This document shows positions 2,877 to 53,711 of a stretch of 64,000 nt of DNA, one piece after another. The stretch is from Bacillota bacterium (lineage in GTDB: Bacteria > Bacillota_I > Bacilli_A > RF39 > UBA660), in the NCBI GenBank assembly GCA_015059285.1, contig SVAS01000001.1, positions 68,217 through 132,216 of the forward strand. Direction: 5' to 3'. Numbering within the stretch: position 1 is the stretch's first letter; each line of letters opens with the position of its first letter. The position numbers and the translations under genes are program-made. The notes beneath the pieces are model-generated. The model searched no databases. It was not told the DNA's origin and worked only from the letters and a program-made list of their open reading frames with translations.

Positions 2877-4292
2877 ATGAATAAGACTAAAATAATCGCA
2901 ACCATAGGTCCAGCTAGTAGTGATAAGAATATTTTGAAGAAAATGATACAAACTGGTATAGATGTTGTACGTATTAATTTAAAGCATACTAATTATAACT
3001 TTTGTAAAGATATAATTAAAAAAATAAATGAATTAAATGCTGAATTAAAAACTAGTGTAGCTGTTATGTTAGATACAAAAGGACCTGAAGTTAGAATAGG
3101 AAAATTTGCAAGCGGACATGCTTATTTAAAAAAAGATTCTAAAATTAGAGTTTATATGGAAGAATTAGTAGGTGATAGTACTAAATTTTCTGTTAATTAT
3201 TCTGGTCTTATTAATGATGTTAAATATGATACTATTTTAAAATTAGATGATGGTTTAATAGAATTAAAAGTTTTAGATAAAGGTGATGGATATTTATTAT
3301 GTCAAGTTTTAAACGATGGCATGATTAGCGACAACAAAGGAATGAACATTCCAGACATTCATTTAAATATTCCTTTTTTATCAGACAAAGATAGAGAAGA
3401 TATTAAATTTGCTTGTAAAAATAATGTTGACTTTTTAGCGCTTTCTTTTGTAGAGAATGCTGAAGATATATTAGAAGTTAACGATTTACTAATTGGTCAT
3501 GGTAATGATCATATAGGAATAATTGCTAAAGTAGAAAACAGTAGAGCTTTAGATGATATTGATGAAATTATTAGAGTTAGTGAAGGTGTAATGGTAGCTA
3601 GAGGGGATTTAGGAGTAGAACTTCCACTTGAACGAGTTCCAGGTATTCAAAAGGCTATTATTAATAAGTGTCATTTAGCTGGAAAAGTTAGTGTAGTCGC
3701 AACTGAGATGTTATCATCTATGGAAAATGTTGTAAGACCAACTAGAGCAGAAGTATCTGATGTTGCTAATGCAGTACTTGATGGTGCTGATGCTGTTATG
3801 TTAAGTGGTGAAACTACAATTGGTAAATATCCAATTGAAACATTAGAAACAATGGAAAGAATAATTAGAGCTGCTGAGGTAGATATAGATTATTTAGATT
3901 TATTAGAAAAAATGATTAAAGTTGAAAAGCAAGATGTTACAGGAATTCTTTCTTATAACGTAGCGGAAACGGCAACTAGACTTAATTGTAAAGCTATTAT
4001 AACTCCAACAGTAAGTGGTTATACTGCTAGAAAAATTAGTAGATTTAGACCAAAATGTCCAATTATTGCCTCAACTCCTAATTATGAAACCGCAAAATCA
4101 TTAATGCTTCATTTTGGGGTTTATCCAATAATTATAAGTGAACTTAAAAACTTTGATAAAATAATTGATCATTCAAGAAAAATTACTAGTGATTTACTTG
4201 ATATTAATAAAGGAGATAAAATCATTATTACAGGTGGTTATCCTTTTAAAGAAGTAAAACATACTAATTTTATGGAAATAGAAGAATTATAA
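2877..4292 (+). CDS. pyk: pyruvate kinase
   Basis: IIATIGPAS..., MLDTKGPEVR, full PK barrel and C-terminal domain (471 aa, lacks PEP-utiliser extension). Confidence 0.9.
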   Translation: MNKTKIIATIGPASSDKNILKKMIQTGIDVVRINLKHTNYNFCKDIIKKINELNAELKTSVAVMLDTKGPEVRIGKFASGHAYLKKDSKIRVYMEELVGDSTKFSVNYSGLINDVKYDTILKLDDGLIELKVLDKGDGYLLCQVLNDGMISDNKGMNIPDIHLNIPFLSDKDREDIKFACKNNVDFLALSFVENAEDILEVNDLLIGHGNDHIGIIAKVENSRALDDIDEIIRVSEGVMVARGDLGVELPLERVPGIQKAIINKCHLAGKVSVVATEMLSSMENVVRPTRAEVSDVANAVLDGADAVMLSGETTIGKYPIETLETMERIIRAAEVDIDYLDLLEKMIKVEKQDVTGILSYNVAETATRLNCKAIITPTVSGYTARKISRFRPKCPIIASTPNYETAKSLMLHFGVYPIIISELKNFDKIIDHSRKITSDLLDINKGDKIIITGGYPFKEVKHTNFMEIEEL

Positions 4293-4319: not shown

Positions 4320-6731
4320 ATGTACAATTTAGGTGAACAATTTAAGTTTGATTATGAAAAAGCTAAACCAAATAAAGATTGTGTTTTTCAAGGAAATAAA
4401 TATCGTATAACAGTTTTAACGGAAAGGTTAGTAAGACTAGAATATGATGAAAATGGTTTTTTTGAAGATAGACCAACAGAGTTAGTTTGGTATCGTAATT
4501 TACCTAAACCAGAGTTTAAAGTAAATGAAGATAATCGCTTTTTAGAAATTACTACTAAATACTTTACTCTGACGTATGCTAAAGGGAAAAACTTTTATGG
4601 TGGAAAAGCTAATCCTACAGGGTATTTAAAAATATCAGTAAATAATTCTGATCGTTATTGGTATTATAAACATCCTGAAGTTAGAAATTATGGTTCACCA
4701 TCTTTAACTTTAAGTGAAAATGGGAAAGTCAAATATCATAAAAGTTTATACTCTATAGATGGTTTTACTAGTATTGATGATAGCATGAGTAAAATTATGA
4801 CGCAGACTGGAGAAATAGTTGAAAGAGATAATAAAGAAATAGATACTTATGTTTTTATTTATTTAAAAGATTTTTATGAGTGTTTACAAGATTATTTTAA
4901 GATTACAGGTTCGCCTGCGTTAATTCCTAGATATGCTTTAGGAAATTGGTGGAGTAGAAATAATACCTATAATGATAAGCAGTTATATGATTTAATAGAC
5001 CAATTTGAAAAAAAGAAAATACCTTTATCAGTTTTAATGCTAGATAAGGATTGGCATATTAGAAATTTTAAAGATAAAAAGAAATTAAAAACAGGGTTTA
5101 CATTTAATAAGGAATTATTTGCATCGCCTTATGAAATGATTTCTTATCTTCATTCAAAAGGCATTCGTTTAGGACTTAATGTAAATCCAACTGAAGGAAT
5201 TTATCCGACAGAAGAATTATATAAAATTATTAAAGAATATTTGAATGCTTTAGAAGATGGAGTTATTCCATATAATATTTATAATCCTAGATTTATTGAT
5301 GCTTATTTAAAAATATTAATACATCCTTTGGATGCCTTAGGAGTAGATTTCTTTTGGATTGACTATTTTGATAAAGCTAAATTGGAAGAGATATTTTTAC
5401 TTAAACATTATCATTTTTATGATATGATGCGTAATTATAAAAGAAGACCGATGGTATTTGGATATAATACTAATATAGGAGCGCATCGTTACCCAGTTTT
5501 ATATTCTGGTAAAACAATTGTTAGTTGGGACACATTAAAATTAATTCCACTTCATAATTTAAATGCTAGTAATAGTGGTGTTACTTGGTGGAGTCATGAT
5601 ATTGGTGGGTATTTTAAAGGGATTGAAGATAATGAACTTTATATTCGTTTTGTTCAATTAGGTGTATTTTCACCAATATTAAAATTTGGTGCAGATGTTG
5701 GAAAATATTATAAAAGAGAACCTTGGAGATGGAGTATTAAAACATATAGTATTGTAAAAGACTATTTAACACTTCGTCATCGTTTAATACCTTATATTTA
5801 TACAGAGGCTTATAAATATCATAAAGAGGGAAAACCTTTAATAGAACCTGTATATTATCGTTTCCCTGAAATGTATGATGATCCTCTTTATAAAAATGAA
5901 TATTATTTTGGAAGTCAGCTTTTTGTCTCACCAATTGTTAAACAAAAAGATTATGTTATGAATCGTGTTATTCATAAATTCTTTATGCCAGATGGTATGT
6001 GGTATGATATTGTAACAGGTAAAAAATTTCCTGGTGGAAGAAATTATGTATCTTTCTTTAAAGATCAAGATTATCCTGTGTTTGCTAGAAGTGGTGCTAT
6101 CATTCCGTATGGGGATAATGAAAATATTAATGATACAACCCCACCAAAAGACTTAGAAATTCAAATTTTCCCAGGTAGAAGTAATACATACCATTTGTAT
6201 GAAGACGATGGTTTAAGTGATTTATATAAAAAAGGTTATTATTTACTAACTTCAATTGATTATAATTATTTACCTAATAACTATACAGTAATTATAAGAG
6301 CAATTGAAGGAAAAAGTGGTATTGTACCAGAAAAGCGTAATTATAAAATTACTTTTAGAAATACAAAACGTGCTAATGATGTTATTGCTTATTTTAATAA
6401 TGATAAAATTGAATATAACGCGTATGTAAATGGTCCTGATTTTATTGTTGAACTTAAAAATGTACCAACTATTGGGCAAGTAACTTTAAATTGTAAGGGA
6501 AAAGATATTGAAATAGATGCTGTAAGAATAATTAATGAAGATATTGAAACTATTATAAGTGATTTACAAATAACAACAGAATTAAAAGAAAAATTAGATA
6601 AAATATTATTTAATGCAGAACTATCTATTAAGAAAAAAAGAATAGAAGTTAGAAAACTTAAAAATGTTGGTTTAGAAAGTAAATTCGTAAAATTATTCTT
6701 AAAATTACTTGAATATATTAACCAAGTGTAA
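4320..6731 (+). CDS. glycoside hydrolase family 31 (alpha-glucosidase/alpha-xylosidase-like)
   Basis: GH31 catalytic signatures (DFFWIDYF, WWSHDIGGY); ATG at 4320 preferred over GTG at 4311 because of RBS spacing. Confidence 0.8.
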   Translation: MYNLGEQFKFDYEKAKPNKDCVFQGNKYRITVLTERLVRLEYDENGFFEDRPTELVWYRNLPKPEFKVNEDNRFLEITTKYFTLTYAKGKNFYGGKANPTGYLKISVNNSDRYWYYKHPEVRNYGSPSLTLSENGKVKYHKSLYSIDGFTSIDDSMSKIMTQTGEIVERDNKEIDTYVFIYLKDFYECLQDYFKITGSPALIPRYALGNWWSRNNTYNDKQLYDLIDQFEKKKIPLSVLMLDKDWHIRNFKDKKKLKTGFTFNKELFASPYEMISYLHSKGIRLGLNVNPTEGIYPTEELYKIIKEYLNALEDGVIPYNIYNPRFIDAYLKILIHPLDALGVDFFWIDYFDKAKLEEIFLLKHYHFYDMMRNYKRRPMVFGYNTNIGAHRYPVLYSGKTIVSWDTLKLIPLHNLNASNSGVTWWSHDIGGYFKGIEDNELYIRFVQLGVFSPILKFGADVGKYYKREPWRWSIKTYSIVKDYLTLRHRLIPYIYTEAYKYHKEGKPLIEPVYYRFPEMYDDPLYKNEYYFGSQLFVSPIVKQKDYVMNRVIHKFFMPDGMWYDIVTGKKFPGGRNYVSFFKDQDYPVFARSGAIIPYGDNENINDTTPPKDLEIQIFPGRSNTYHLYEDDGLSDLYKKGYYLLTSIDYNYLPNNYTVIIRAIEGKSGIVPEKRNYKITFRNTKRANDVIAYFNNDKIEYNAYVNGPDFIVELKNVPTIGQVTLNCKGKDIEIDAVRIINEDIETIISDLQITTELKEKLDKILFNAELSIKKKRIEVRKLKNVGLESKFVKLFLKLLEYINQV

Positions 6732-6789
6732 TATAATAATAAATAATTATTTAAAAACGAAGAAAAAGAGTAGTAATAAGTAACTTTAT

Positions 6790-6948
6790 TTAAAGAGAGA
6801 AAGTGGTTGGTGAAAACTTTCATTAAAGTCTTATGAACTTGCTTTGGAGTTTGATCCGCTTGTAGCGTTAAAACATTTGAGTGCATAAGTATTATGAAAT
6901 AAGGTGGTACCACGGGTAAAACTCGTCCTTATACATAATACTTTTTTG
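6790..6948 (+). promoter_or_regulatory. T-box riboswitch leader (Leu specifier CUU) upstream of leuS
   Basis: Stem I start agagagaaagtggttggtgaaaac, T-box motif aaggtggtaccacgg at 6901-6915, downstream U-run; candidate specifier context gaaCUUg/gtCUUa. Confidence 0.8.
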
Positions 6949-6964
6949 TATTTAAGGAGGATTT

Positions 6965-7306
6965 ATGGAAGAAGTTTTATTTAGTTTAGGTATATTTGTT
7001 TTATTATATTTATTTTATTTAATAACTGTAATTTGTAGAAAACAAAAATTAGATAAATTTATGGAAGGTGCTGAAGTAACTTATTTAAAAAGAAGATATA
7101 ATTTATCTTTAAAAAAAGTTAGTAAAAAACTTTTAGCAAACATTATAGCTTTAACTAATTCATTTGTTATTAGTTTAACTTGTTTATCTTTAGTTTTAAT
7201 TAAAAATTATATTTTAAAATTAATGGTAGCGTTTATAATATTAGTTCCTTTAATAATTATTTCTTATCATATAATTGGAACTATATTAAAAAGAAAGGAA
7301 AGATAG
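6965..7306 (+). CDS. small Leu/Ile-rich membrane protein (113 aa, about 3 TM helices) between T-box and leuS
   Basis: Starts in the same aggaggatttATG context that follows the pheS and alaS-operon T-boxes; hydrophobic helices; no homolog recognised. Confidence 0.5.
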
Positions 7307-7307
7307 T

Positions 7308-10127
7308 ATGTTTAATCATAGTGAAATAGAAAAAAAATGGAGAGAATATTGGGAAGAACACAATACTTTTAAAACTGATGTATGGGACTTTTCTAAACCA
7401 AAGTTTTATGCATTAGATATGTTTCCATATCCATCAGGAGTAGGTTTACATGCAGGACATCCTGAAGGATATACCGCAACTGATATTGTGTCTCGTATGA
7501 AAAGAATGCAAGGATATAATGTACTTCACCCAATGGGATTTGACTCTTTTGGTCTTCCTGCTGAACAATATGCAATAAGCACTGGAAATCATCCAGATGG
7601 ATTTACTAACGATAATATTAAAACTTTTAAAGAACAATTAAAATTATTGGGTTTATCTTATGATTGGGATAAAGAAGTATCAACTTGTGATCCAAATTAT
7701 TATAAATGGACACAATGGATATTTAAAAGGTTATATGAAGATGGACTTGCTAAATACGTTGATATGCCTGTAAACTGGTGTGAAGAATTAGGAACTGTAC
7801 TTGCTAATGATGAAATCATTGATGGTAAAAGTGAAAGAGGAGGATATCCTGTTGTTCGTAAAAATATGAAACAATGGGTTATAGATATACCTAAATATGC
7901 TGAAAAACTATTAGATGGTTTAAATGAAATTGATTGGCCAGAATCAACTAAAGAAATGCAAAGAAATTGGATTGGTAAAAGTATAGGAGCACATGTTAAA
8001 TTTAAAGTAAAAGATACTGATAAATCATTTACAGTATTTACTACTAGATGTGATACTTTATTTGGTGCTACTTACTGTGTTTTATCACCAGAACATGAAC
8101 TTGTAGATTTAATTACAACTAGTGATAAAAAAGAAGAAGTAGATGCTTATAAAAAGGTATGTGCTACTAAATCAGAAATGGAAAGAACAGAGCTCAATAA
8201 AGAAAAAACAGGTGTATTTATAGGAGCATATGCTATTAATCCTGTTAATAATAAAGAAATTCCTATTTGGATTTCAGATTACGTTCTAGCAACCTATGGA
8301 ACAGGAGCTATTATGGCAGTTCCTGCTCATGATGAAAGAGACTATGAATTTGCTAAAAAATTTAATATTGATATTATTCAAGTATTAGAAGAAGTTACAG
8401 GAACTCCTCATGAAAACGAATCTACAAAAAATAGTATCGTAGCTATTTTATATGATGAAAAAAACAATAATTATTTAACAATCAATTGGGGTAATTTAGG
8501 TGGTAGATTATTTATTGGGGGAAGCATTAAAGAAGGTGAAACACCTTTAGAATGCGCTATTAGAGAAGTAAAAGAAGAAACAGGCTATGTAAATATAGAA
8601 TTATTACAAGAATTACCTAAAATTAATCATCATTATTATGCTTATAATAAAGATAAATATTTTAATATTGAAAGTACTGGTTTTGTTTTCAAATTAGTTA
8701 ATGATGAAAAAATAGAACAAAACTTAGATGAAGATGAAAAATTCACTGTAGAATGGGTTTCAGAAGAAACAGTAAATAAAGAAATTACTGAACAATTACA
8801 TAAAAAGACTTATGAATATTATTTAAATAATGGTGCTATGTGTGGAGATGGTATTCACATTAATTCTGACTTTTTAAATGGTTTAAATAAAGAAGATGCT
8901 ATAAATAAAATGACTGAGTGGCTAGAAGAAAATAAGTTTGGTAATAAACAAATAAATTATCGTTTAAGGGAATGGATTTTTGCCCGTCAAAGATATTGGG
9001 GAGAACCAATACCAGTAGTTCATTTTGAAGATGGAACAAGTGCATCCATAGACGATTCTGAATTACCTTTAGTACTTCCAGAATTAGAAGATTATAGTCC
9101 AAGTAAAAGTGGAGCATCTCCACTTGAAAAAGCAACTGATTGGGTAAATGTAGAAATAGATGGTAAAAAAGCAAAAAGAGAAACTAGTACAATGCCTGGT
9201 TCAGCGGGTTCTAGTTGGTATTTCTTAAGATATATTGACCCACATAATGAAAATGCAATAGCAGATAAAAAACTATTAGAACATTGGTTACCAGTAGATC
9301 TTTATGTAGGTGGACCAGAACATGCAGTAGGTCATTTACTTTATTCTAGAATGTGGAATAACTATTTATATGATATAGGAGTTGTTCCAGTAAAAGAACC
9401 ATTTAAAAAATTAGTACATCAAGGAATGATATTAGGTGAAAATGGAATTAAAATGGGTAAAAGATATCCAGAATTTGCTGTTAACCCTAATGACATTGTA
9501 AAAGAATATGGTGCTGATACATTAAGGCTTTATGAAATGTTTATGGGACCTTTAGAAGCTGATAAACCATGGAGTAAAAAAGGTGTTGAAGGAGCTAGAA
9601 GATTTTTGGATCGTATATATAGACTATATACAGAAGAAAATAAAATTCAAGAAACACAAAATACAAATTTAGAAAAAATCTACAATCAAACAGTTAAAAA
9701 AGTAACAGAAGATTATGAAACATTAAACTTTAATACAGCAATTAGTAGTATGATGATATTCGTAAATGCAGTTTATAAAGAAGACATATTCCCAAAAGAA
9801 TATGCAGAAGGATTTGTTAAATTATTAAATCCAGTAGCCCCTTACTTAGCTGAAGAATTATGGAACTTATTAGGTCATAATGATACAATTGCATACGAAT
9901 CTTGGCCTACTTATGATGAAACTAAAATTGTAGATGAAACTTATACTATGATTGTACAAGTTAATGGTAAAGTACGTGGAAAAATAGAAGTTTCTACTGA
10001 TACAACAAATGACCAAATGGAAGAACTTGCTAAAACAAATGAAAATGTTATTAAAAATATTGAGGGAAAAGAAATTGTTAAAGTAATTGTTGTTCCTAAA
10101 AAATTAGTTAATATTGTAGTAAAATAA
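7308..10127 (+). CDS. leuS: leucyl-tRNA synthetase with inserted Nudix hydrolase domain
   Basis: Aligns end to end with B. subtilis LeuRS ([12 protein letters not shown] motif, KMGKR KMSKS motif), but about 145 extra residues lie between FEFAKKF and [14 protein letters not shown] and contain the Nudix box [23 protein letters not shown]. Confidence 0.95.
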
Positions 10128-10152
10128 ACACTAGAAAATCTAGTGTTTTTTA
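10128..10152 (+). terminator. leuS terminator
   Basis: hairpin acactagaaaatctagtgt followed by T-run. Confidence 0.7.
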
Positions 10153-10230: not shown

Positions 10231-11307
10231 ATGAAGAGAAAAGGATTTACCTTAATTGAACTGTTAGCAGTAATAGTAATACTAGCAATTATAGCGCTTA
10301 TTGCAGTGCCAGTTATTATGAACATTATCAGCAGTGCAAGAAAGAGTGCATTTGAGGATACAGCATATGGATTAATAAGTGCAGGGGAAATGTACTATGC
10401 AAACAATATATTAAGTGGAGCCACTTCTGATGATGTAGAATTTACAATTACAAATGGAGAATTTGTAGGAGAAAACAAATTAGAAGTAAAAGGTTCATTA
10501 CCAGCAAGTGGGAAAGTAAAGGTTACAAAAGATGGAAAAGTTGCAATTGCTGTAAATAATGGAAATTATTGTATAACAAAAGCAACAAGTGAAAGCAAAA
10601 TACAAACAGAAGAACTTGCAGGAGAATGTACTTATAGAAAGGTATTAAATCCAATAGTCACATCAACTGAGGCATGTATTACAAATGTAAATGAAATATG
10701 TGGTGATGATGTAATAAAAGCAGGAATCGCTGTTCAAGTAAAAGTAAATGATAAAGAAGAAGCAAAAACATTCTATGTGGTAAAAGATAATGCTACAACA
10801 GGAACATTAACATTAATCATGGATAGAAACATAGATCAAACAACAGTAGCGTGGATAACAAAAGAGGAATATTTAAGTGCAGGGGGAACAGAAGCAGAAT
10901 GGAGTTATGATGCTTATGGTTTTGGCACAGAAGGAAACTCTAATAAAGGTCCAATCACAGCGTTAAATTATTTAGAAAGCAAAACAGCAAATTGGACAAA
11001 CATTCATACTAAAAATTATACAGTTTCTGATGAACACGGAAAGTATATAGTAGAAAGAACAAACGCAAGGGCAAGAATGCTTTCAAAAACAGAAACATTG
11101 AGTTTAGGTTGTGTAATGTATGATGCAGGATGTCCAGTTTGGTTATATAATGGAATTGGATACTGGTTAAGTACTTCTGATACAGATTTCCCTATAACTG
11201 ATGCTTTAAATATGCCTAGTAGTGGTTATGTATCTGGTCTACCAATCTATCGCGATGATTATAGAGGTGTACGCCCAGTAATAGAAATACCTAAAACTAT
11301 AATATAA
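10231..11307 (+). CDS. type IV pilin-like protein paralog 1 (358 aa): prepilin N-terminus plus conserved C-terminal domain
   Basis: MKRKGFTLIELLAVIVILAIIALIAVP class III signal (G/F cleavage site, Glu at +5); C-terminal motifs TLIMDRNI, GPITALNYLE, ARARML, CPVWLY, GVRPVIEI. Confidence 0.85.
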   Translation: MKRKGFTLIELLAVIVILAIIALIAVPVIMNIISSARKSAFEDTAYGLISAGEMYYANNILSGATSDDVEFTITNGEFVGENKLEVKGSLPASGKVKVTKDGKVAIAVNNGNYCITKATSESKIQTEELAGECTYRKVLNPIVTSTEACITNVNEICGDDVIKAGIAVQVKVNDKEEAKTFYVVKDNATTGTLTLIMDRNIDQTTVAWITKEEYLSAGGTEAEWSYDAYGFGTEGNSNKGPITALNYLESKTANWTNIHTKNYTVSDEHGKYIVERTNARARMLSKTETLSLGCVMYDAGCPVWLYNGIGYWLSTSDTDFPITDALNMPSSGYVSGLPIYRDDYRGVRPVIEIPKTII

Positions 11308-23029: not shown

Positions 23030-23212
23030 TTAAAGAGAGTTAGTGGTTGGTGAAAACTAATAATAATATTTTATGAATTCATCTTCAGAGCTTTATATAC
23101 TAAATATATAACGGTAACGCGTTACAGTTTTAAGGCAAGTTGATAGACTTGTAAATTAAGGTGGTACCACGTAAACACGTCCTTATTGGATTGTGTTTTT
23201 TTTAATAATTAG
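23030..23212 (+). promoter_or_regulatory. T-box riboswitch leader (Phe specifier UUC) upstream of pheST
   Basis: agagagttagtggttggtgaaaac stem I start, gaaUUCa specifier context, T-box aaggtggtaccacg at 23158-23171, T-run; extended -10 TGTTATAAT at about 22968-22976. Confidence 0.8.
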
Positions 23213-35800: not shown

Positions 35801-36259
35801 ATGGAGAAATTTAATCGAACACTTCGTGGCTATGATCCAGAAGAAGTAAATGCTTTTGTAGATCAAGTCATTGGCCAAGTTGAAAAGATGGTTAGTGAAG
35901 GTAAACTTAAAGATGCTAAAATAAAAGAACTAAAGTCTTTAGAAGTAGAAAATGTACGTTTAAAAGAAAAAATTGCACAATATGAACGTATGGAAGGAAC
36001 TTTAAATAAAGCTATATTAATGGCCCAAAAGACTTCTGATCAAATAAAGACTAATGCTCATAGAGAAAGTGAAATTATTTTAGAAGATGCTAAACGAAAT
36101 GCTAGTCGTATTGTTAATGAAGCTTTACTTAGAGCTGAAAAAACAGAGATGGAAGCAAATATGTTAAAACGTAATATTAATATATTTAAACGTCGTTTAA
36201 GAAGTATTATCGAACAACAACTTGAAATGGTTAATGATATTGAAAAAGTAGATTTTTAA
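35801..36259 (+). CDS. divIVA: DivIVA-domain protein
   Basis: FNRTLRGYDPEEVNAFVDQV N-terminal DivIVA motif, coiled coil. Confidence 0.8.
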   Translation: MEKFNRTLRGYDPEEVNAFVDQVIGQVEKMVSEGKLKDAKIKELKSLEVENVRLKEKIAQYERMEGTLNKAILMAQKTSDQIKTNAHRESEIILEDAKRNASRIVNEALLRAEKTEMEANMLKRNINIFKRRLRSIIEQQLEMVNDIEKVDF

Positions 36260-36294
36260 AACAGATGATAGAGACGATATACAAATTAGTCTTG

Positions 36295-36462
36295 CTAGAG
36301 AGTTAGTGGTTGGTGGAAACTAATGAAGAAGGTTGTATATAGATCACTCTAGATGTTTCTAATATAGAACGGTGACGCGTTATAGTTTTGAGTGTATAAT
36401 TTTTATAAAATAAGGTGGTACCGCGGGTAAAACTCGTCCTTAATTGGATGAGTTTTTTTGTT
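36295..36462 (+). promoter_or_regulatory. T-box riboswitch leader (Ile specifier AUC) upstream of ileS
   Basis: agagagttagtggttggtggaaac stem I start, tagAUCa specifier context, T-box aaggtggtaccgcgg, terminator actcgtcc/ggatgagt plus U7. Confidence 0.85.
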
Positions 36463-36493
36463 TTAAAAATATAATTATAATAGGAGGGTTAAT

Positions 36494-39400
36494 ATGAAAA
36501 AATTTGAAGAATTAGATAAAAGACAAGTGAGTGAAGTAGAAGACAGTATATCTCAATCTTGGGAAAGTATTAATGCAATGCATGATGCTCAAGTGAAAAA
36601 GAATGAAAATAATGAAACATTCGTTTTTTATGATGGACCAGCATTCGCTAATGGTTTTCCAGGATTACACCATATGGTTTCTAAAAATTTAAAAGACTGT
36701 GTAACTAAATATCATGTAATGAATGGTAAAAAAGTTATTAGAAAAATAGGATGGGATACACATGGATTACCAATTGAAAACCATGTTGAAAAGAAATTAG
36801 GAATTTCATCTAAAAAAGAAATTGAAGCTTTAGGTGTTGAAAAATTTAATGAAGAATGTCGCAAAAGCGTAAGAGCAAATGAAGATGCCTTTACAGACTT
36901 AACTAGTAAAATGGGACAATTCTTTGATGTTGAAGATCCATATTTAACATATAAAAATGAATATATTGAAACTGAATGGTGGATTTTAAAACAAATGTTT
37001 GAAAGAAATATGTTCTATGAAGGAACTAGAGTTGTACCATATTGTCCACATTGTGGTACTGGTCTTGCTACTCATGAAGTTGCGCAAAATTATCAAACTG
37101 ATACAGCTTTAACAGTTTATGTGCCATTTAAATTAAAAGATAAAGATGAGTATTTCTTAGTATGGACAACAACACCTTGGACATTAATTGCCAATGTTGC
37201 ATTATGTGTAAATCCAGATGAAGAATATATAAAAGTAGAAAGTCAAGGTTATAAATTTATACTAGCTTCTTCTTTAGCGCATAAAGTATTAGGTGAAGAA
37301 TATGAAGTTTTAGAAACTTATAAAGGAAAAGATTTAGAATACACTGAATATGAACAATTAATACCATCATTTGAAGTAGATAAAAAAGCATTCTTTGTAA
37401 CATGCGATACTTATGTAACTATGGAAGATGGAACAGGTATTGTACATATTGCTCCAGCGTTTGGTGAAGATGATGCTAATGTAGGTAAAAATTATGATTT
37501 ACCTTACTTAAATCCAGTTGGTAAAGATGGCTGCTATGTTGGTGGAATGTGGGATGGAAAATTTGTTCATGATGTAAATGAAGAAGTAGTAAATTATTTA
37601 AAAGAAAATGATAAATTATTCAAAAGACAAAAAGTTGCTCACGAATATCCACATTGTTGGAGATGTGATACTCCACTTTTATATTATTCAATGCCAAGTT
37701 ATTATATAAGAGTAAGTGAAATGACAGATAAGTTAGTAGAAGCCAACTCTAAAGTTAATTGGTATCCTGCTTATGTAGGTGAAAAAAGATTTGCTAACTG
37801 GTTAGCTAATGCTAGAGATTGGAATGTATCTCGTAGTAGATATTGGGGTAGTCCAATTCCTTATTGGAAATGTGATTGTGGACATAATCACATGGTTGGA
37901 TCAATAGCTGAATTAAAAGAAATGGCTATAGAAAAAATTGATGATGATTTTGATTTACATAAACCATATATTGATAATGTTCATTTAAGATGCGAAAAAT
38001 GTGGAAAAGAAATGACACGTATTCCAGATGTACTTGATTGCTGGTTTGACTCAGGTGCTATGCCATTTGCTCAATACCATTATCCATTTGAAAATCAAGA
38101 ATTATGGGATGAACAATTCCCAGCTGATTTTATTTGTGAAGGAATTGACCAAACTCGTGGATGGTTCTATACATTAATGGTAATTTCAACATTCGTAAAA
38201 GGTTGTTCACCATTTAAAAACGTATTAGTAAATGACTTATTATTAGATGCCGAAGGTAAAAAAATGAGTAAATCTCGTGGTAATATAGTTGAACCATTTA
38301 CAACTATAAAAGAATATGGAGCAGATACAGTAAGATTTTATTTACCATATGTATCTCCAGTATGGACACCACTTAAATTTGATATGGAAGGATTAAAAGA
38401 AGTTTATTCTAAATTCTTTAATCCACTAAAGAATACATATAGCTTCTTTGCTATGTATGCCAATATTGATAATATTGATACAAATGAATGTCAAGTAAAA
38501 TATGAAGATAGAGAAGAAATAGATTTATGGTTATTATCTAAATATAATAAATTAGTAAAAAATGTAAGAGACTCATTTGATGAATATGATTTAAATAAAG
38601 TAGTTCATTATTTATCTTCATTTGTTTCAGAAGATTTATCTAATTGGTATATTAGAAGAAATAGAAATAGGTTCTGGGGTAGTGAATTGAATACTTCTAA
38701 GAAAAGTGTTTATATAACAACTTATGAAGTATTAGTTGGTTTATCTAAATTAATAGCTCCAATTACACCATTTATATCTGAAGAACTATATCGTAAATTA
38801 ACTGGTGAAGAATCAGTACATTTATCTGATTATTCAACTTGTAATGATAGTTTAATTAATGAACACATTGAAGCAAAAATGGATTTAGTAAGAAATTTAA
38901 TTTCTATTGGTAGATATGTTCGTGAAGAAACTAAAATAAAGGTACGTCAACCAATAAGTGAAGCATTACTTGATGGTAAAAATAAAGAATTAATTTCTGA
39001 TTTAGTATCACTTATTGAAGAAGAATTAAATATCAAAAAAGTAATGTTTGTAGATGACTTAAATGAATATATGAACTTATCTGTTAAACCTAACTTTAAA
39101 GTAGTAGGTAAACTATTTGGTTCATTGATTAAAGAATTCCAAAGTAAATTAGAAAATTTAACAGAACAAGAAATAACTTCATTACAAAAAGGTGATAGTA
39201 TTACTATGAATATTGGTGATGAAACTAAAGAAATCACAAGTGACATGATAGAAATTAGAATATCTTCTAAAGAAGGCTTTAATGTTGGTATGGAAAATAA
39301 TAACTTCATTATTTTAAATACTGAACTTTCGGAAGAACTTATTATGGAAGGTATTGCTCGTGAAATGATTTCTAAAGTTCAACAACTTCGTAAAAATAAT

Positions 39401-39595
39401 GACTTTGATATTGTTGATCGTATAAACATTTACTATCAAGGAAATGAAGATTTTGAAAAAACACTAAATAAATACGTAGATTATATTAAAAATGAAACAT
39501 TAGCTATTGAAATCGTATCTAAAGAGGGATTAACTAATAAATTTGATTTAAATGGCTTAGAAGTTTACTTAGATGTTGAGAAAAATAATCAATAA
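36494..39595 (+). CDS. ileS: isoleucyl-tRNA synthetase, type 2 (eukaryote-like) form
   Basis: FANGFPGLHH HIGH region and KMSKS motif, 1033 aa; the N-terminal signature resembles type 2 IleRS rather than the Bacillus type 1 form. Confidence 0.9.
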   Translation: MKKFEELDKRQVSEVEDSISQSWESINAMHDAQVKKNENNETFVFYDGPAFANGFPGLHHMVSKNLKDCVTKYHVMNGKKVIRKIGWDTHGLPIENHVEKKLGISSKKEIEALGVEKFNEECRKSVRANEDAFTDLTSKMGQFFDVEDPYLTYKNEYIETEWWILKQMFERNMFYEGTRVVPYCPHCGTGLATHEVAQNYQTDTALTVYVPFKLKDKDEYFLVWTTTPWTLIANVALCVNPDEEYIKVESQGYKFILASSLAHKVLGEEYEVLETYKGKDLEYTEYEQLIPSFEVDKKAFFVTCDTYVTMEDGTGIVHIAPAFGEDDANVGKNYDLPYLNPVGKDGCYVGGMWDGKFVHDVNEEVVNYLKENDKLFKRQKVAHEYPHCWRCDTPLLYYSMPSYYIRVSEMTDKLVEANSKVNWYPAYVGEKRFANWLANARDWNVSRSRYWGSPIPYWKCDCGHNHMVGSIAELKEMAIEKIDDDFDLHKPYIDNVHLRCEKCGKEMTRIPDVLDCWFDSGAMPFAQYHYPFENQELWDEQFPADFICEGIDQTRGWFYTLMVISTFVKGCSPFKNVLVNDLLLDAEGKKMSKSRGNIVEPFTTIKEYGADTVRFYLPYVSPVWTPLKFDMEGLKEVYSKFFNPLKNTYSFFAMYANIDNIDTNECQVKYEDREEIDLWLLSKYNKLVKNVRDSFDEYDLNKVVHYLSSFVSEDLSNWYIRRNRNRFWGSELNTSKKSVYITTYEVLVGLSKLIAPITPFISEELYRKLTGEESVHLSDYSTCNDSLINEHIEAKMDLVRNLISIGRYVREETKIKVRQPISEALLDGKNKELISDLVSLIEEELNIKKVMFVDDLNEYMNLSVKPNFKVVGKLFGSLIKEFQSKLENLTEQEITSLQKGDSITMNIGDETKEITSDMIEIRISSKEGFNVGMENNNFIILNTELSEELIMEGIAREMISKVQQLRKNNDFDIVDRINIYYQGNEDFEKTLNKYVDYIKNETLAIEIVSKEGLTNKFDLNGLEVYLDVEKNNQ

Positions 39596-48193: not shown

Positions 48194-49336
48194 ATGAAAA
48201 TACTTAAAAAAGATAATCAAGAACTTGACGTAAAAAAAATTAATGAAGTTGTTGGAGTGTCTAAAAGGATTCTTAAAATAGCTTATATTTTGTTTATTGT
48301 TTTAGCTATCTATGTTTTTATTAAGGTAAGCAAAGAACTAAATATAATGAATTTTTTAATAACACTTTTGAAAATAGTTTCACCACTATTTATTGGTATT
48401 GTTATAGCATGGCTATTTAATCCGATTGTTACATATTTACAAAAAAAAGGTATGAGAAGAGGTTTAGGAGCAACACTTTCATATTTTGCATTAGTTGGTT
48501 TATTAACTATTGTAATTTGGTCTATAGTGCCAACCTTATCTGAACAAATAAATGATTTTGCTGGTATGATACCACAATTATTCGATACTATAAAGGAGTG
48601 GATTGATACTATTTTTGAAGGATTAAATAATATTGAAAGTTTTGATGCTCTTGCTATCAAATCCGATTTATTTAAAGCCATTGAAGAATTTGGGGTTAAT
48701 TTAACTAATTCACTTCCAACGATGGTAGTTAATATTATTAGTTCATTGTTTTCAGGACTTGGTACAATTTTAATTGGGTTAGTGATAGGATTTTATTTAT
48801 TAATTAGTGTTGATGGAACTGATAATCTAATTAATTTATTACCTAAGAAGATGCAAGAGACAACTCGTGATTTATTAACTGAAATAGATGGTTCTTTTAG
48901 AAGTTTTGTTCAAGGGGCGCTTTTAGATTCAACATTCGTATTTATTATTACATCTATTGGATTTTCTTTAATAGGATTAAAAGCACCACTATTCTTTGGA
49001 CTTTTCTGTGGAATTACTAATGTTATTCCATATGCAGGACCTTATATAGGTGGGGCACCTGCTGTTATAGTAGGTTTTTCACAAGGAATTCCAACAGGAA
49101 TATTAACTTTAGTGGTAATTGTTTTAATTCAATTTTTAGAAGGTAATTTCTTACAACCTTTAATAATGAGTAAAACAACTAAATTACATCCTGTTACAAT
49201 CATGTTAGGTCTTTTAGTCTTTGGTTATTTCTGGGGAATTATTGGTATGGTTATTTCAACTCCAATAATTGCTGCTTCTAAAGCAATTTTGATGTTTTTA
49301 GACGAAAAATATGATATACTATCATTTAGTGATTAA
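48194..49336 (+). CDS. AI-2E family transporter (UPF0118/PerM)
   Basis: 8 TM topology and conserved Gly-rich C-terminal half typical of AI-2E. Confidence 0.7.
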   Translation: MKILKKDNQELDVKKINEVVGVSKRILKIAYILFIVLAIYVFIKVSKELNIMNFLITLLKIVSPLFIGIVIAWLFNPIVTYLQKKGMRRGLGATLSYFALVGLLTIVIWSIVPTLSEQINDFAGMIPQLFDTIKEWIDTIFEGLNNIESFDALAIKSDLFKAIEEFGVNLTNSLPTMVVNIISSLFSGLGTILIGLVIGFYLLISVDGTDNLINLLPKKMQETTRDLLTEIDGSFRSFVQGALLDSTFVFIITSIGFSLIGLKAPLFFGLFCGITNVIPYAGPYIGGAPAVIVGFSQGIPTGILTLVVIVLIQFLEGNFLQPLIMSKTTKLHPVTIMLGLLVFGYFWGIIGMVISTPIIAASKAILMFLDEKYDILSFSD

Positions 49337-49371
49337 AGCGATGAAGAAAGAAAGTAGAATAATTTGTTTTT

Positions 49372-49530
49372 AAAGAGAGTTAGTGGTTGGTGGAAACTAA
49401 TAAATAAATTATTTGAAAGCTACTTTCTGAGTATAGTAAAAACTATCGGAAAAATCCGTTATCAAAATTAAGAACAAATTAGGATGGTACCACGGTTTTT
49501 TCGTTCCTAGAAAATAACCGTGGTTTTTTT
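49372..49530 (+). promoter_or_regulatory. T-box riboswitch leader (Ala specifier GCU) upstream of the dNMP-kinase-like/cmk/alaS operon
   Basis: agagagttagtggttggtggaaac, gaaaGCUa specifier context at 49429-49431, T-box ggatggtaccacgg, terminator ccacggtt...aaccgtgg plus U7. Confidence 0.85.
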
Positions 49531-49542
49531 ATAGGAGGATTT

Positions 49543-50094
49543 ATGGAGTTTAATAAAAGAAATACTAAAATTTACATCTTATCTGGTAAAGCTAAAAGCG
49601 GTAAGGATTTAGTAAGTAAAATTATCACTAATTATTATCGTGATAAAAAATGTATATGTCTTTCATATTCATATTATCTTAAAGATTATATAAAAAGAAT
49701 TACTGGATGGGATGGTAGTGAAGAGAATAAACCTAGAGAAATGTTACAAAAGGTTGGTATTGAACTTATAAAAAATAAAATAAATAATAAGCTGTTTATA
49801 AATAGATTATTAGAAGATATTGATGTTTTTTCTTATTTTTATGATATTATAGTAGTCACCGATGCAAGGTTAATAGAAGAAGTTGAAATACCAAAAGAAA
49901 AGTTAGATAATGTTATAACAATTAGAATTAATAGAGATAATATTGATAATAATTTGACAAATGAACAAAAGAGTCATTTAACAGAAATAGCTTTAGATAA
50001 TTATTCTAATTTTGACTATATTATTGATAATAATAAAGATTATAGTTATTTAGAAAATAAAGTAAATAAGATATTGGAGGGTAATTATGAGTAA
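49543..50094 (+). CDS. phage T4-type deoxynucleoside monophosphate kinase-like P-loop protein
   Basis: Walker A LSGKAKSGKD with Asp after GK, as in T4 gp1 dNMP kinase (LSGVKRSGKD); 183 aa. Confidence 0.55.
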   Translation: MEFNKRNTKIYILSGKAKSGKDLVSKIITNYYRDKKCICLSYSYYLKDYIKRITGWDGSEENKPREMLQKVGIELIKNKINNKLFINRLLEDIDVFSYFYDIIVVTDARLIEEVEIPKEKLDNVITIRINRDNIDNNLTNEQKSHLTEIALDNYSNFDYIIDNNKDYSYLENKVNKILEGNYE

Positions 50095-50737
50095 AATAGT
50101 TGCGATAGATGGTCCTGCTGGAAGTGGTAAAGGAACAGTTGCTGAAATACTTTCAGAAAAATGTAATTTAATCAATATTGATACAGGAGCTACTTATAGA
50201 TGTGTAGCACTAGCCGCCTTAAATAATAATTTAACTTTAGATAATGTAGATGAAATAGTAGAATTATCTGGTAAAATCAAAATAGAATTTACACCTGATA
50301 AACGTGTTTTATTAGATAATAAAGATGTAACTGATGCAATTAGAAGTAAAGAAGTAACTAGTATAGTGTCTCCTATTTCTAGTATTTTAAAAGTTAGAGA
50401 AAACATGGTTAAACTTCAAAGAGAAATGGCAAAAAACTATGATGTTGTAATGGAGGGAAGAGATATTACAACAGTAGTTTTACCAAATGCTAATTATAAA
50501 TTTTATTTAGATGCCACATTAGAAGAAAGAGCAAATAGAAGATATAAACAATATCAAGAAAAAGGAATTGATATGACTTTAGAAGAAATAAAAGAAAATA
50601 TATCAAAAAGAGATTATAATGATATGCATAAAGAAGTGGGTTCACTAATTAGAACAGATGAACAAGTATATATAGATTCTACTAATATGACGATTGAAGA
50701 AGTAGTAAATAAAATGATAGAAGTAATTGAGGAGTGA
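50087..50737 (+). CDS. cmk: cytidylate kinase
   Basis: IAIDGPAGSGKGT, full Cmk fold. Confidence 0.9.
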   Translation: MSKIVAIDGPAGSGKGTVAEILSEKCNLINIDTGATYRCVALAALNNNLTLDNVDEIVELSGKIKIEFTPDKRVLLDNKDVTDAIRSKEVTSIVSPISSILKVRENMVKLQREMAKNYDVVMEGRDITTVVLPNANYKFYLDATLEERANRRYKQYQEKGIDMTLEEIKENISKRDYNDMHKEVGSLIRTDEQVYIDSTNMTIEEVVNKMIEVIEE

Positions 50738-50741
50738 TATA

Positions 50742-52490
50742 ATGAATTTAAAAGATTTATATATTGATTTTTTTGTTAGTAAAGGGCATAAACAAATACC
50801 TTCTGCGCCTGTAATACCTGAAAATGACCCTTCAGTGCTATTTAATACAGCAGGTATGCAACCTTTAATTCCATATTTAATGGGTCAAGCTCATCCATAT
50901 GGAAAAAGATTAGTTGATTATCAAAAATGCATTAGAACTAATGATTTAGATAGTATTGGAGATACAACTCATCATACTTTTTTTGAAATGTTAGGTAATT
51001 GGAGTTTAGGCGATTATTTTAAAAAGGAAAGTATTTCTTGGAGTTTTGAATTTTTAACAAGTGTTTTAAAAATACCTGTTGAAAAACTAGCTGTAACAGT
51101 ATTTGCAGGTAATAATGATATCCCTGAGGATACTGAATCTATTGAAATTTGGAAAAGTTTAGGAATAAAAGAAGGAAGGATTGCTAAAACAGTAGAAGAT
51201 AATTTTTGGATTGCAGGTGAAACAGGACCTTGTGGACCAGATACTGAAATATTTTATTTCCGTAGTGAAGATGAAATTCCTGAAATATTTGATCCAGAAG
51301 ATAATCGTTGGGTAGAAATTTGGAATAATGTTTTTATGCAATATAATAAAAGTTTAGATGGAAGTATTTCTGAACTTCCAAATAAAAATGTTGATACAGG
51401 AATGGGTGTTGAAAGAGTTGTAGCAATATTAGAAGGTGTTAATGATAACTATACAACTTCTATTTGGAAAGATGTTATAAATAAAATTGAAGAATTATCA
51501 AATATTAAATATGAAGAAAATAAAGAAAGTATGCGTATTATAGCGGATCATTTAAGAACAGCTGTATTTATCTCTGCTGACCCAACTGGTATAAAACCTT
51601 CTAATACTGACCAAGGCTATATTTTAAGAAGATTAATTCGTAGAGCTATTAGACATGCTAAAAAATTAAATATAGATATGAATAGTGATTGGGAACAAGA
51701 GATAGCTTTAATTATTTTAGATAAATATTCAAAATATTACAGTGAATTAGAAGCTAATAAACAAGTAGTATTAGAAGTATTAAAAAATGAAAGAATTAAA
51801 TTTAATCGTACTTTAGAAAAAGGTTTAAGAGAATTTGAAAAAATAGCTAGTAATATTACAGATGGAAAACTAAATAAAGATTTAGCTTTTAAACTTTATG
51901 ATACTTATGGTTTTCCAATTGAACTTACAGTAGAACTAGCAAGTGAATTAAATTTATTAGTAGATGTAGATGGATTTAAAGAAAAATTTAAAGCACATCA
52001 AGAACTTTCAAGAGCAGGAGCTAGTGCTAAATTTAAAGGTGGTCTAGCTGGAGATGGAGAGGCTGAAACTAAATATCATACAGCAACACATTTACTTAAT
52101 GCTGCTTTAAAAGTTGTTGTAAATGAAGATGTTCATCAAAAAGGAAGTAATATTACATCTGAAAGGATGCGTTTTGACTTTTCTTGTGACCATAAATTAA
52201 CAGCTGAAGAAAAACAAAAAGTAGAAGAGTTAGTAAATAAGTGGATTAAAGAAGAAATTCCTATAACTAAGGAAGAAATGAATAAAGAAGAAGCTTTAAA
52301 ATCAGGTGCTGAGTGTATGTTCATAGAAAAATATCCAGATGTTGTAACAGTATATAGTATTGGTAATATTTCTAAAGAATTATGTGGTGGACCACATGTA
52401 GAAAATACTAAAGAATTAGGTGTTTTTGAAATTAAAAAAGAAGAAGCTAGTAGTGCTGGTGTAAGAAGAATAAAAGCTATTTTAAAATAA
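50742..52490 (+). CDS. alaS: minimal alanyl-tRNA synthetase (583 aa: catalytic, tRNA-recognition and editing core; no beta-barrel, no C-Ala)
   Basis: FNTAGM, FEMLGNWSLGDYFK, GVERV class II motifs; the editing HTATHLL ... CGGPHVENT ... AGVRRIKA follows directly after AKFKGG. Confidence 0.85.
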   Translation: MNLKDLYIDFFVSKGHKQIPSAPVIPENDPSVLFNTAGMQPLIPYLMGQAHPYGKRLVDYQKCIRTNDLDSIGDTTHHTFFEMLGNWSLGDYFKKESISWSFEFLTSVLKIPVEKLAVTVFAGNNDIPEDTESIEIWKSLGIKEGRIAKTVEDNFWIAGETGPCGPDTEIFYFRSEDEIPEIFDPEDNRWVEIWNNVFMQYNKSLDGSISELPNKNVDTGMGVERVVAILEGVNDNYTTSIWKDVINKIEELSNIKYEENKESMRIIADHLRTAVFISADPTGIKPSNTDQGYILRRLIRRAIRHAKKLNIDMNSDWEQEIALIILDKYSKYYSELEANKQVVLEVLKNERIKFNRTLEKGLREFEKIASNITDGKLNKDLAFKLYDTYGFPIELTVELASELNLLVDVDGFKEKFKAHQELSRAGASAKFKGGLAGDGEAETKYHTATHLLNAALKVVVNEDVHQKGSNITSERMRFDFSCDHKLTAEEKQKVEELVNKWIKEEIPITKEEMNKEEALKSGAECMFIEKYPDVVTVYSIGNISKELCGGPHVENTKELGVFEIKKEEASSAGVRRIKAILK

Positions 52491-52718: not shown

Positions 52719-53711
52719 ATGAGACAAAACAAAAAAGGATTTACTTTAATTGAATTACTAGCAGTAATAGTGATACTAGCAATAATAGCACTAATAGCAG
52801 TACCAGTTATAATGAATATAATAAGTAGTGCAAGAGAAAGTGCATTTAAAGATACTGCTTATGGACTTGTGAAAGCTGGAGAGTTATACTACGCAAATCA
52901 ATTACTGACAACAGGTGGGATGATAGAAGATAAAGTTTTTACTTTTGATGATGGAAATGTTGAACCAACAGGTTTAGATATCAAAGGAAATTTGCCAACA
53001 ACTGGTTCAATGACAATTACCAAAGATGGAAGTGTGATTTTAAACGTTTCAGATGGTCAATTTCTTGCAACTAAAAACGAGCATCAAACTGATGTTGTTG
53101 TTATAAAAGGGAATGTTAGCAAACCTATTCCAAATTCAAATATAATCTCAGACAATAAGTGTGCAGTAGATGAAACTCAAATCTGTGCGGAAGGTACTTT
53201 AATAACTTACAAAGTAAATGATAGTCAAACTTATGACTTTTATGTAATAAAAGATACAGGTAGATTATTAACTTTGATTATGAATAGTAATTTAGGATTA
53301 AATGATGTTTCTTGGAATACTTCTGGTTTTGCTAGTGATGGTCCTACTGGGGTACTGAAAGCTTTAGAAGAACGCACGAATAATTGGACAAATGTAAATA
53401 TAATTTCTGAATATACTTATGTAGATACAAATGGAAATAACCAATATTCAGCCTTTACTAAAACTAATGTTAGATCTAGATTATTATCAAGTACAGAATA
53501 TGATATCAGTAAAACTTGGTTAACTTCAAATTTAGTAAATTATGATGCTTGTGGCTGGACTGAAAATGACGCTTGTGGTTATTGGACTGGAGAATCTATT
53601 TCTAATACTCCTGAAGGTTTTGGTTTATGCCTTACTTCTTATGGACCATATACATGTTCTGGAATGTATGGTATACGTCCAGTAATTGAAGTATCTAAAT
53701 TAGCAAATTAA
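52719..53711 (+). CDS. type IV pilin-like protein paralog 3 (330 aa)
   Basis: MRQNKKGFTLIELLAVIVILAIIALIAVP; C-terminal TLIMNSNLG, WTNVNI, CGYWTG, YGIRPVIEVSK. Confidence 0.85.
   Translation: MRQNKKGFTLIELLAVIVILAIIALIAVPVIMNIISSARESAFKDTAYGLVKAGELYYANQLLTTGGMIEDKVFTFDDGNVEPTGLDIKGNLPTTGSMTITKDGSVILNVSDGQFLATKNEHQTDVVVIKGNVSKPIPNSNIISDNKCAVDETQICAEGTLITYKVNDSQTYDFYVIKDTGRLLTLIMNSNLGLNDVSWNTSGFASDGPTGVLKALEERTNNWTNVNIISEYTYVDTNGNNQYSAFTKTNVRSRLLSSTEYDISKTWLTSNLVNYDACGWTENDACGYWTGESISNTPEGFGLCLTSYGPYTCSGMYGIRPVIEVSKLAN

Follow-up and report, generated by a model that had tools for sequence, protein, structure and literature searches.

In B. subtilis, the leuS leader runs straight into leuS. 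In the 64,000-nucleotide stretch of DNA analyzed here (the window), the gene of a conserved 113-aa membrane protein sits between the leader and leuS. The locus raises the question whether this small ORF is a gene at all, whether its translation could regulate leuS, and why it stays where it is. The features of the locus are collected in Table 1.

TABLE 1 Features of the small ORF-leuS locus, in window coordinates
Feature	Position	Strand	Evidence
Promoter-like site, TTGAAT-17 nt-TATAAT	6709..6737	+	Consensus scan, 10/12 matches; prediction only
T-box leader, Leu-specific	6751..6933	+	Rfam RF00230, 125.5 bits, E 2e-27
Intrinsic terminator of the Leu T-box	6887..6949	+	RNA fold -21.6 kcal/mol, z = -2.3
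Shine-Dalgarno AAGGAGG of the small ORF	6954..6960	+	Read from sequence
Gene for 113-aa 3-TM membrane protein, undescribed family	6965..7306	+	ORF, homologues, dN/dS, AlphaFold2, hydropathy
leuS ribosome-binding site AAGGAAAG, purine-rich	7295..7302	+	Read from sequence
leuS, 939 aa	7308..10127	+	TIGR00396 1041 bits, aligned from residue 3
Terminator-like hairpin plus T-run, end of the two-gene operon	10126..10148	+	Consensus scan; prediction only

Leader and Predicted Expression Signals

The first-pass annotation of this DNA had read the leuS leader as a T-box starting at 6790 with the probable specifier CUU. The Rfam match covers the full model (positions 1-219 of 219), exceeds the gathering score of 93, and is the highest scoring of the four T-box leaders that Rfam finds within the window. 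The specifier loop (6835-6841) reads GAA-CUU-G, with CUU at 6838-6840 preceded by the GAA of the S-turn and followed by a purine. The same specifier is kept in eight of nine aligned leaders from relatives, and the ninth has CUA, which is also a leucine codon. The full-length match and the conserved GAA-CUU thus bear out the T-box and its specifier, whereas the start has to be moved approximately 40 nt further upstream, to 6751. The T-box sequence GGUGGUACCACG lies at approximately 6903-6914. The terminator is a long hairpin (approximately 6887-6943) that incorporates the 3' half of the antiterminator, and it is followed by a T6 stretch, the U-run at 6942-6947; hairpin and U-run are kept across the nine aligned leaders. 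Judged by this predicted fold, the leader is a T-box of the transcriptional type. A translational T-box that sequesters the Shine-Dalgarno sequence was rejected, as the predicted structure is that of a terminator with its U-run and leaves the Shine-Dalgarno sequence unpaired. The T-box itself is textbook. Like the B. subtilis-type leuS leader (RF00230), it is a full-length T-box with a Leu specifier, a T-box sequence, and terminator/antiterminator alternatives upstream of leuS, and it is probably read by the same mechanism, antitermination by uncharged tRNA-Leu. The promoter-like site overlaps the 3' end of the upstream GH31 gene.

The GGAGG of the small-ORF Shine-Dalgarno sequence is conserved among relatives. 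It had been noted at first reading that the same start context precedes pheS and the alaS operon, and the match proved to be exact: three copies of the 13-mer AGGAGGATTTATG are present in the window, one at 6955, one ahead of pheS at 23211, and one within the Ala T-box operon at 49533, against 0.14 expected by chance. Three of the four T-boxes of the window are followed by this translation start, which suggests a common or duplicated 3' end of these leaders.

The other T-box operons of the window have features of their own. Downstream of the third T-box (36256-36444) lies the gene of a class I synthetase of 1033 aa (region 36256-39595), which has DUF5915 at its C-terminus and looks like an IleRS of type 2. 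In the fourth T-box (49332-49511) the specifier is apparently GCU (Ala). Its operon (region 49332-52490) consists of a 183-aa dNMP/phosphomevalonate-kinase-like gene (49543-50094), cmk (50087-50737), and alaS (50727-52490), in this order; nucleotide kinases under an alanine T-box are unexpected. The alaS product is short (587 aa, from a TTG start), with the catalytic and SAD domains present and the C-terminal domain absent. Large proteins with a prepilin-type N-terminal methylation motif (PF07963) recur beside synthetase operons in this lineage. They are encoded at 10231-11307 and 52719-53711 of the window and at 1-850 of L001 and 2669-3925 of L017, two of the related loci described below.

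The Small ORF as a Gene

The small ORF had been described as encoding a Leu-rich protein of 113 aa with about three transmembrane (TM) helices and approximately 18% leucine. It starts with ATG and ends with the stop TAG at 7304-7306. The encoded protein has three hydrophobic helices and contains 22 Leu (19.5%, slightly more than stated at first) and 14.2% Ile, so that the description holds. Genetic code 11, in which UGA is a stop codon, fits the lineage (PMC8629427).

One explanation of such an ORF is that it was mis-called or arose by chance and is an untranslated part of the leuS 5' UTR. Consistent with this, annotation offers nothing beyond "hypothetical protein" and no family assignment. 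However, the probability that a frame of 113 codons stays open at A 0.40 and T 0.335 is approximately 8e-6, and none of 20,000 shuffled sequences remained open. The ORF also has a strong Shine-Dalgarno-ATG arrangement identical to that of pheS. Above all, it has hundreds of homologues of conserved length. A word-indexed search yielded 18 close homologues of 104-116 aa with 41-100% identity. An exhaustive profile search over 1.84 billion cluster representatives (clusters at 50% identity) yielded 625 representatives at E ≤ 1e-3 and 262 at E ≤ 1e-10, nearly all of them 105-125 aa long and matching from end to end. A second indexed search added 132 members, every one of which was unnamed or labeled "hypothetical protein." Codon-level dN/dS values for pairs with unsaturated dS ranged from 0.09 to 0.40, far under 1. 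No broken ORF was found in any relative examined, although in-frame stops in close relatives had been proposed as the observation that would speak against the gene. The small ORF is a genuine gene under purifying selection, and the chance explanation has a negligible probability.

The 254 full-length members share a set of signature residues, namely F11 (89%), Y15 (85%), Y18 (98%), Y45 (90%), N65 (92%), Y101 (99%), and G105 (93%). N65 falls in the motif IALTNSFIIS. The gene is single copy in the window, where no second copy or paralogue was found. Two further interpretations of the reading frame were rejected. A gene on the opposite strand is not indicated, as no minus-strand ORF of at least 40 aa overlaps 6965-7306. 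A frameshifted N-terminal extension of LeuRS was also discarded, because LeuRS starts at its canonical N-terminus and none of the 150 best family matches is fused to a synthetase.

Predicted Structure and Family Identity

AlphaFold2 modeled the protein from an alignment of 18 sequences with a pLDDT of 93.8 and a pTM of 0.83. The helices of the model (residues 2-23, 26-33, 36-45, 54-76, and 82-112) form three TM helices and a helical hairpin. Along the sequence, TM1 (approximately aa 4-24) is followed by a basic loop with two short helices (aa 25-55), TM2 (approximately aa 56-76), TM3 (approximately aa 82-108), and a basic C-tail. Lys and Arg are absent from the N-terminus, and 11 are present in the loop 25-55 and 4 in the C-tail. 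From this charge distribution, the N-terminus is predicted to be outside and the C-terminus inside, with the loop 25-55 in the cytoplasm.

No relative of known identity was found. Pfam searches with the window protein, the 18 close homologues, and 58 diverse members gave only scattered sub-threshold matches of TM type, NCBIfam contained no family above its cut-off, and PHROGs gave no match. A profile search of the PDB returned only a designed TM protein and noise, and Foldseek searches against the PDB and BFVD returned nothing below E = 3. The three-TM carriers of the SemiSWEET/PQ-loop type and AzlD/BrnE (PF05437) gave neither a profile match in Pfam nor a match to a solved structure in the PDB. 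Weak matches to NCBIfam SA1362 fell on inconsistent segments and were rejected as noise.

The only consistent likeness, a weak one, was to TIGR01218, the "tandem five-TM protein" of Gram-positive bacteria. Six of the 58 diverse members match this model at E ≤ 0.1; the best score, 20.7 bits, is far below the curated cut-off of 35, so that the family cannot be assigned to TIGR01218. Individual inspection of three of the six (18-21 bits, E 3e-4 to 1.5e-3) showed that the small protein covers, along its entire length, the final three TM helices of the model. Two members match Pfam DUF6773 with E values from 0.25 to 3e-4, also far below the curated cut-off (27 bits). Both TIGR01218 and DUF6773 are families of unknown function, and the likeness to them may be noise from TM composition. 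A literature search returned no description of a small membrane protein associated with leuS and a T-box. The small proteins thus make up a new family of approximately 625 clusters without a relative in Pfam, in NCBIfam, or among known structures.

Linkage to leuS

In the window, the leuS start had been placed at 7308, 1 nt past the stop of the small ORF (TAG-T-ATG), and the TIGR00396 alignment from residue 3 of LeuRS agrees with this position. The leuS ribosome-binding site lies inside the last codons of the small ORF (K-R-K-E-R), 5 nt upstream of the leuS ATG. In the linked relatives, a leuS ribosome-binding site of GGAG/AGGA type is always encoded by the basic K-K-K-E/G tail of the ORF. In ten lineages the leuS ATG is located within the last codons of the ORF, where AAT GTT TAA is also read as ATG TTT AAT (an ATGT[AT]TAA overlap), and the recurrent -N-V end of the small protein results from this overlap. 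Other lineages have TAATG or ATGA junctions or spacers of 1-4 nt. Both marks of a translationally coupled pair, a stop codon near or overlapping the next start and a Shine-Dalgarno sequence within the upstream coding sequence, were found in the window and in the relatives.

The genomic context was determined for 28 distinct members, a non-random sample of the approximately 625 clusters. Their contigs are from metagenome-assembled genomes titled "uncultured Tenericutes," "uncultured Bacilli," and "Bacillales bacterium UBA660" and from gut, rumen, and bioreactor metagenomes; a metagenome scan with the family alignment contributed seven loci. In 24 members leuS was verified immediately downstream. 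One more probably has leuS in the same place (L034, whose contig ends after the ATGTACAATCAT start), and three are stand-alone genes with no adjoining leuS (L013, L017, and L020). The first-pass annotation had proposed a check of related genomes for the same ORF; the gene adjoins or overlaps leuS in 24-25 of the 28 members. In this one group of gut Bacilli the family gene is nearly always found just upstream of leuS.

The linked set takes in members that are only 27-35% identical to the window protein and whose LeuRS is approximately 50% identical. Both flanks of the pair vary. The upstream neighbor may be a GH31 glycosidase, a Mur ligase, an MscS-like channel, an RsmD-like methylase, laminin-G repeat proteins, or an IS605 TnpB, and the gene downstream of leuS also differs among relatives. 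At one locus (L039, 2633-3778), a gene for an IS605 OrfB/TnpB (Cas12f-like) stands directly upstream of the family gene P0212; other contigs with a protein identical to P0212 have a GH31 gene in that place. That the pair stays adjacent down to approximately 50% LeuRS identity while its flanks change is more than unrelated neighbors usually show, and a functional tie between the two products cannot be dismissed.

A NUDIX Domain in LeuRS

The window LeuRS owes its length of 939 aa to an insert, an entire NUDIX hydrolase domain that directly follows the CP1 editing domain. The insert comprises approximately aa 362-505 (nt 8391-8834), matches PF00293 at aa 377-503 (E 1.9e-15), and has an intact Nudix box. 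The LeuRS of L012, L014, L015, L027-31, and L040-42 (943-947 aa) have the insert as well, and it is absent from those of L001, L004, L006, L010/11, L016, L018, L026, L032, L036, and L043 (approximately 790-803 aa). A search with the insert sequence gave few matches. Among solved Nudix proteins only weak generic matches were obtained, with Ap4A hydrolase at the top (E 5e-4). No Nudix-containing LeuRS was found described in the literature.

Loci without a T-box or without leuS

Of the 25 leuS-linked loci, 21 have a T-box upstream of the ORF. The remaining four retain the ORF-leuS pair: in L012, L014, and L036 a plain promoter is found in place of the T-box, and in L032 only a decayed T-box remnant is present. 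The pair therefore does not need the T-box. The L032 remnant (3900-3985) consists of GCGAGCATGACTCGTCCTTATG followed by a T-run upstream of ORF-leuS and has no T-box score even at E ≤ 0.01; it is an apparent snapshot of riboswitch loss.

The three stand-alone copies have their own promoters. The L013 copy is located between greA and trmB. The L017 copy is flanked by a pilin-like gene and polA, and leuS lies 3.5 kb upstream of it. The L020 copy stands beside def and has its own terminator. The K-K-K-E/G tail is missing from the stand-alone proteins of L013 and L017, and that of L020 is still lysine-rich at its end. The dN/dS value for L013 versus L017 is 0.13. Because these copies are under purifying selection, the protein serves a function for which leuS is not needed in cis.

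Leucine Content and Regulation of leuS

It had also been proposed that the ORF is a Leu-rich translated leader, in which the speed of ribosomes over the 22 Leu codons modulates leuS and so adds a second leucine sensor to the T-box. The high leucine content of the window ORF and its position between the T-box and leuS fit this idea, and with its stop abutting the leuS start, its translation could in principle affect that of leuS. However, the ORF starts 18 nt past the U-run of the terminator, and its translation can therefore not affect termination. The protein contains only two LL pairs and no Leu run. Its Leu codons are 21 UUA and one CUU, where UUA makes up 73% of the window background and the specifier is CUU; codon choice follows the background and not the isoacceptor that the specifier reads. 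Leucine content is also not conserved in the family (6.6-23.5%, median 15.6%), with 9.9-12% in L010, L011, and L013, and other hydrophobic ORFs of the window carry 11-18% Leu. What is conserved under purifying selection is the protein sequence, its length, and its predicted fold. Moreover, the pair persists after T-box loss, and the gene is found without leuS or T-box. Stalling at Leu codons would presumably lower the coupled translation of leuS, opposite to the T-box response.

Leader-peptide attenuators such as E. coli leuL, ilvL, and hisL encode 14-32 aa, have runs of regulatory codons, and overlap alternative RNA structures; only the codon run is conserved. The small ORF resembles them in being translated upstream of a leucine-metabolism gene and in having many Leu codons. 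It differs in its length of 113 aa, where attenuator ORFs have approximately 14-35 aa with a codon run, and in its position at 6965, beyond the U-run rather than overlapping alternative structures. Attenuator peptides have no independent life as proteins, unlike the products of the stand-alone copies in L013, L017, and L020. A second, leucine-sensing layer is therefore not supported, and we regard it as very improbable. The leucine richness is best read as the ordinary composition of a membrane protein in an A+T-rich genome, with no leucine-specific role.

DISCUSSION

The first-pass annotation had named an unknown small membrane protein as one explanation of the extra cistron. A conserved family under purifying selection, a confidently predicted three-TM fold, and an operon shared with leuS support this explanation. 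From the geometry alone, we infer that the ORF and leuS are co-transcribed and coupled. Uncharged tRNA-Leu would read the CUU specifier and stabilize the antiterminator; otherwise, transcription would stop at the hairpin and the U-run ending at 6947. The read-through transcript would be translated from AAGGAGG-ATG into the 113-aa integral membrane protein. Ribosomes finishing at the UAG at 7304-7306 could then start leuS at the AUG at 7308, directly or via AAGGAAAG, and both products would be made together by translational coupling.

The reading that we prefer, with a probability of roughly 55%, is that the small protein has its own function and is held in the leuS operon by operon lock-in and is not a regulatory leader. 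The ORF would be locked in with leuS because the promoter, the T-box, and the leuS ribosome-binding site are upstream of the ORF or inside it. As leuS is essential, the two would be hard to separate. A precedent is found in the same window, where the Ala T-box operon carries the kinase-like gene and cmk before alaS; unrelated genes do therefore ride T-box operons in this lineage. A functional tie, to LeuRS or to the supply of leucine, may strengthen the lock-in.

The main competing explanation is that such a tie is the reason for the arrangement. The small protein would be a dedicated partner of LeuRS, for example a membrane tether, or an oligomeric component or regulator of leucine or branched-chain uptake, and co-regulation with 1:1 synthesis would be the point. 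The arrangement itself argues for this: ORF-leuS is the only conserved unit between varying flanks, down to the most divergent linked members, and a Leu T-box heads 21 of the 25 linked loci. Most genes of T-box regulons encode synthetases or serve to make or transport the cognate amino acid (PMC2494555). The conserved polar residues inside the TM helices (Y18, N65, and Y101) and the conserved basic loop, which is predicted to be cytoplasmic, would also suit a partner. Against it, three lineages keep the gene under purifying selection as a solitary copy that neither adjoins leuS nor has a T-box. The protein has no likeness in Pfam or the PDB to any transporter family, including AzlD, BrnE, and SemiSWEET-type permeases, and no fusion of its domain to LeuRS occurs among the 150 best family matches. 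The presence of cmk in the Ala T-box operon of the window makes T-box association weak evidence in this lineage. We therefore consider a dedicated partner possible but doubtful. Slightly less probable still is a LeuRS accessory of these gut Bacilli, which have reduced genomes and depend on amino acids, made one-for-one with the enzyme; it would hold LeuRS at the membrane or would form or control the entry of leucine, so that imported leucine would be charged at its point of entry.

In their survey, Wels et al. (2008) found unannotated "tRNA-ligase related hypothetical" genes and permeases downstream of T-boxes and used T-box specificity to guess function (PMC2494555). The gene described here is similar to theirs in being an unannotated gene under a T-box, with or instead of a synthetase. 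A small membrane protein associated with leuS is not listed in the survey, which does not cover genomes of this lineage (PMC2494555). Unlike in those cases, the linkage of the present family is to leuS itself and outlives the loss of the T-box.

What is new is a sizeable family of small membrane proteins in uncultured gut and rumen Bacilli, nearly always encoded by the first cistron of the leuS operon and predicted to be translationally coupled to it. The arrangement is also a new variation on the T-box-synthetase operon in uncultured Bacilli with reduced genomes. If operon lock-in is all that holds the pair together, the locus would be a clean case of overlapping signals freezing gene order. 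It would also show that T-box specificity is a risky guide to gene annotation in reduced genomes, as the same window has cmk under an alanine T-box. If the functional link is true, the family would represent a previously unknown accessory to an essential synthetase, or else a new small component of leucine uptake in organisms that depend on imported amino acids. A partner of LeuRS would constitute a novel type of accessory subunit for a synthetase, from a family without relatives of known function.
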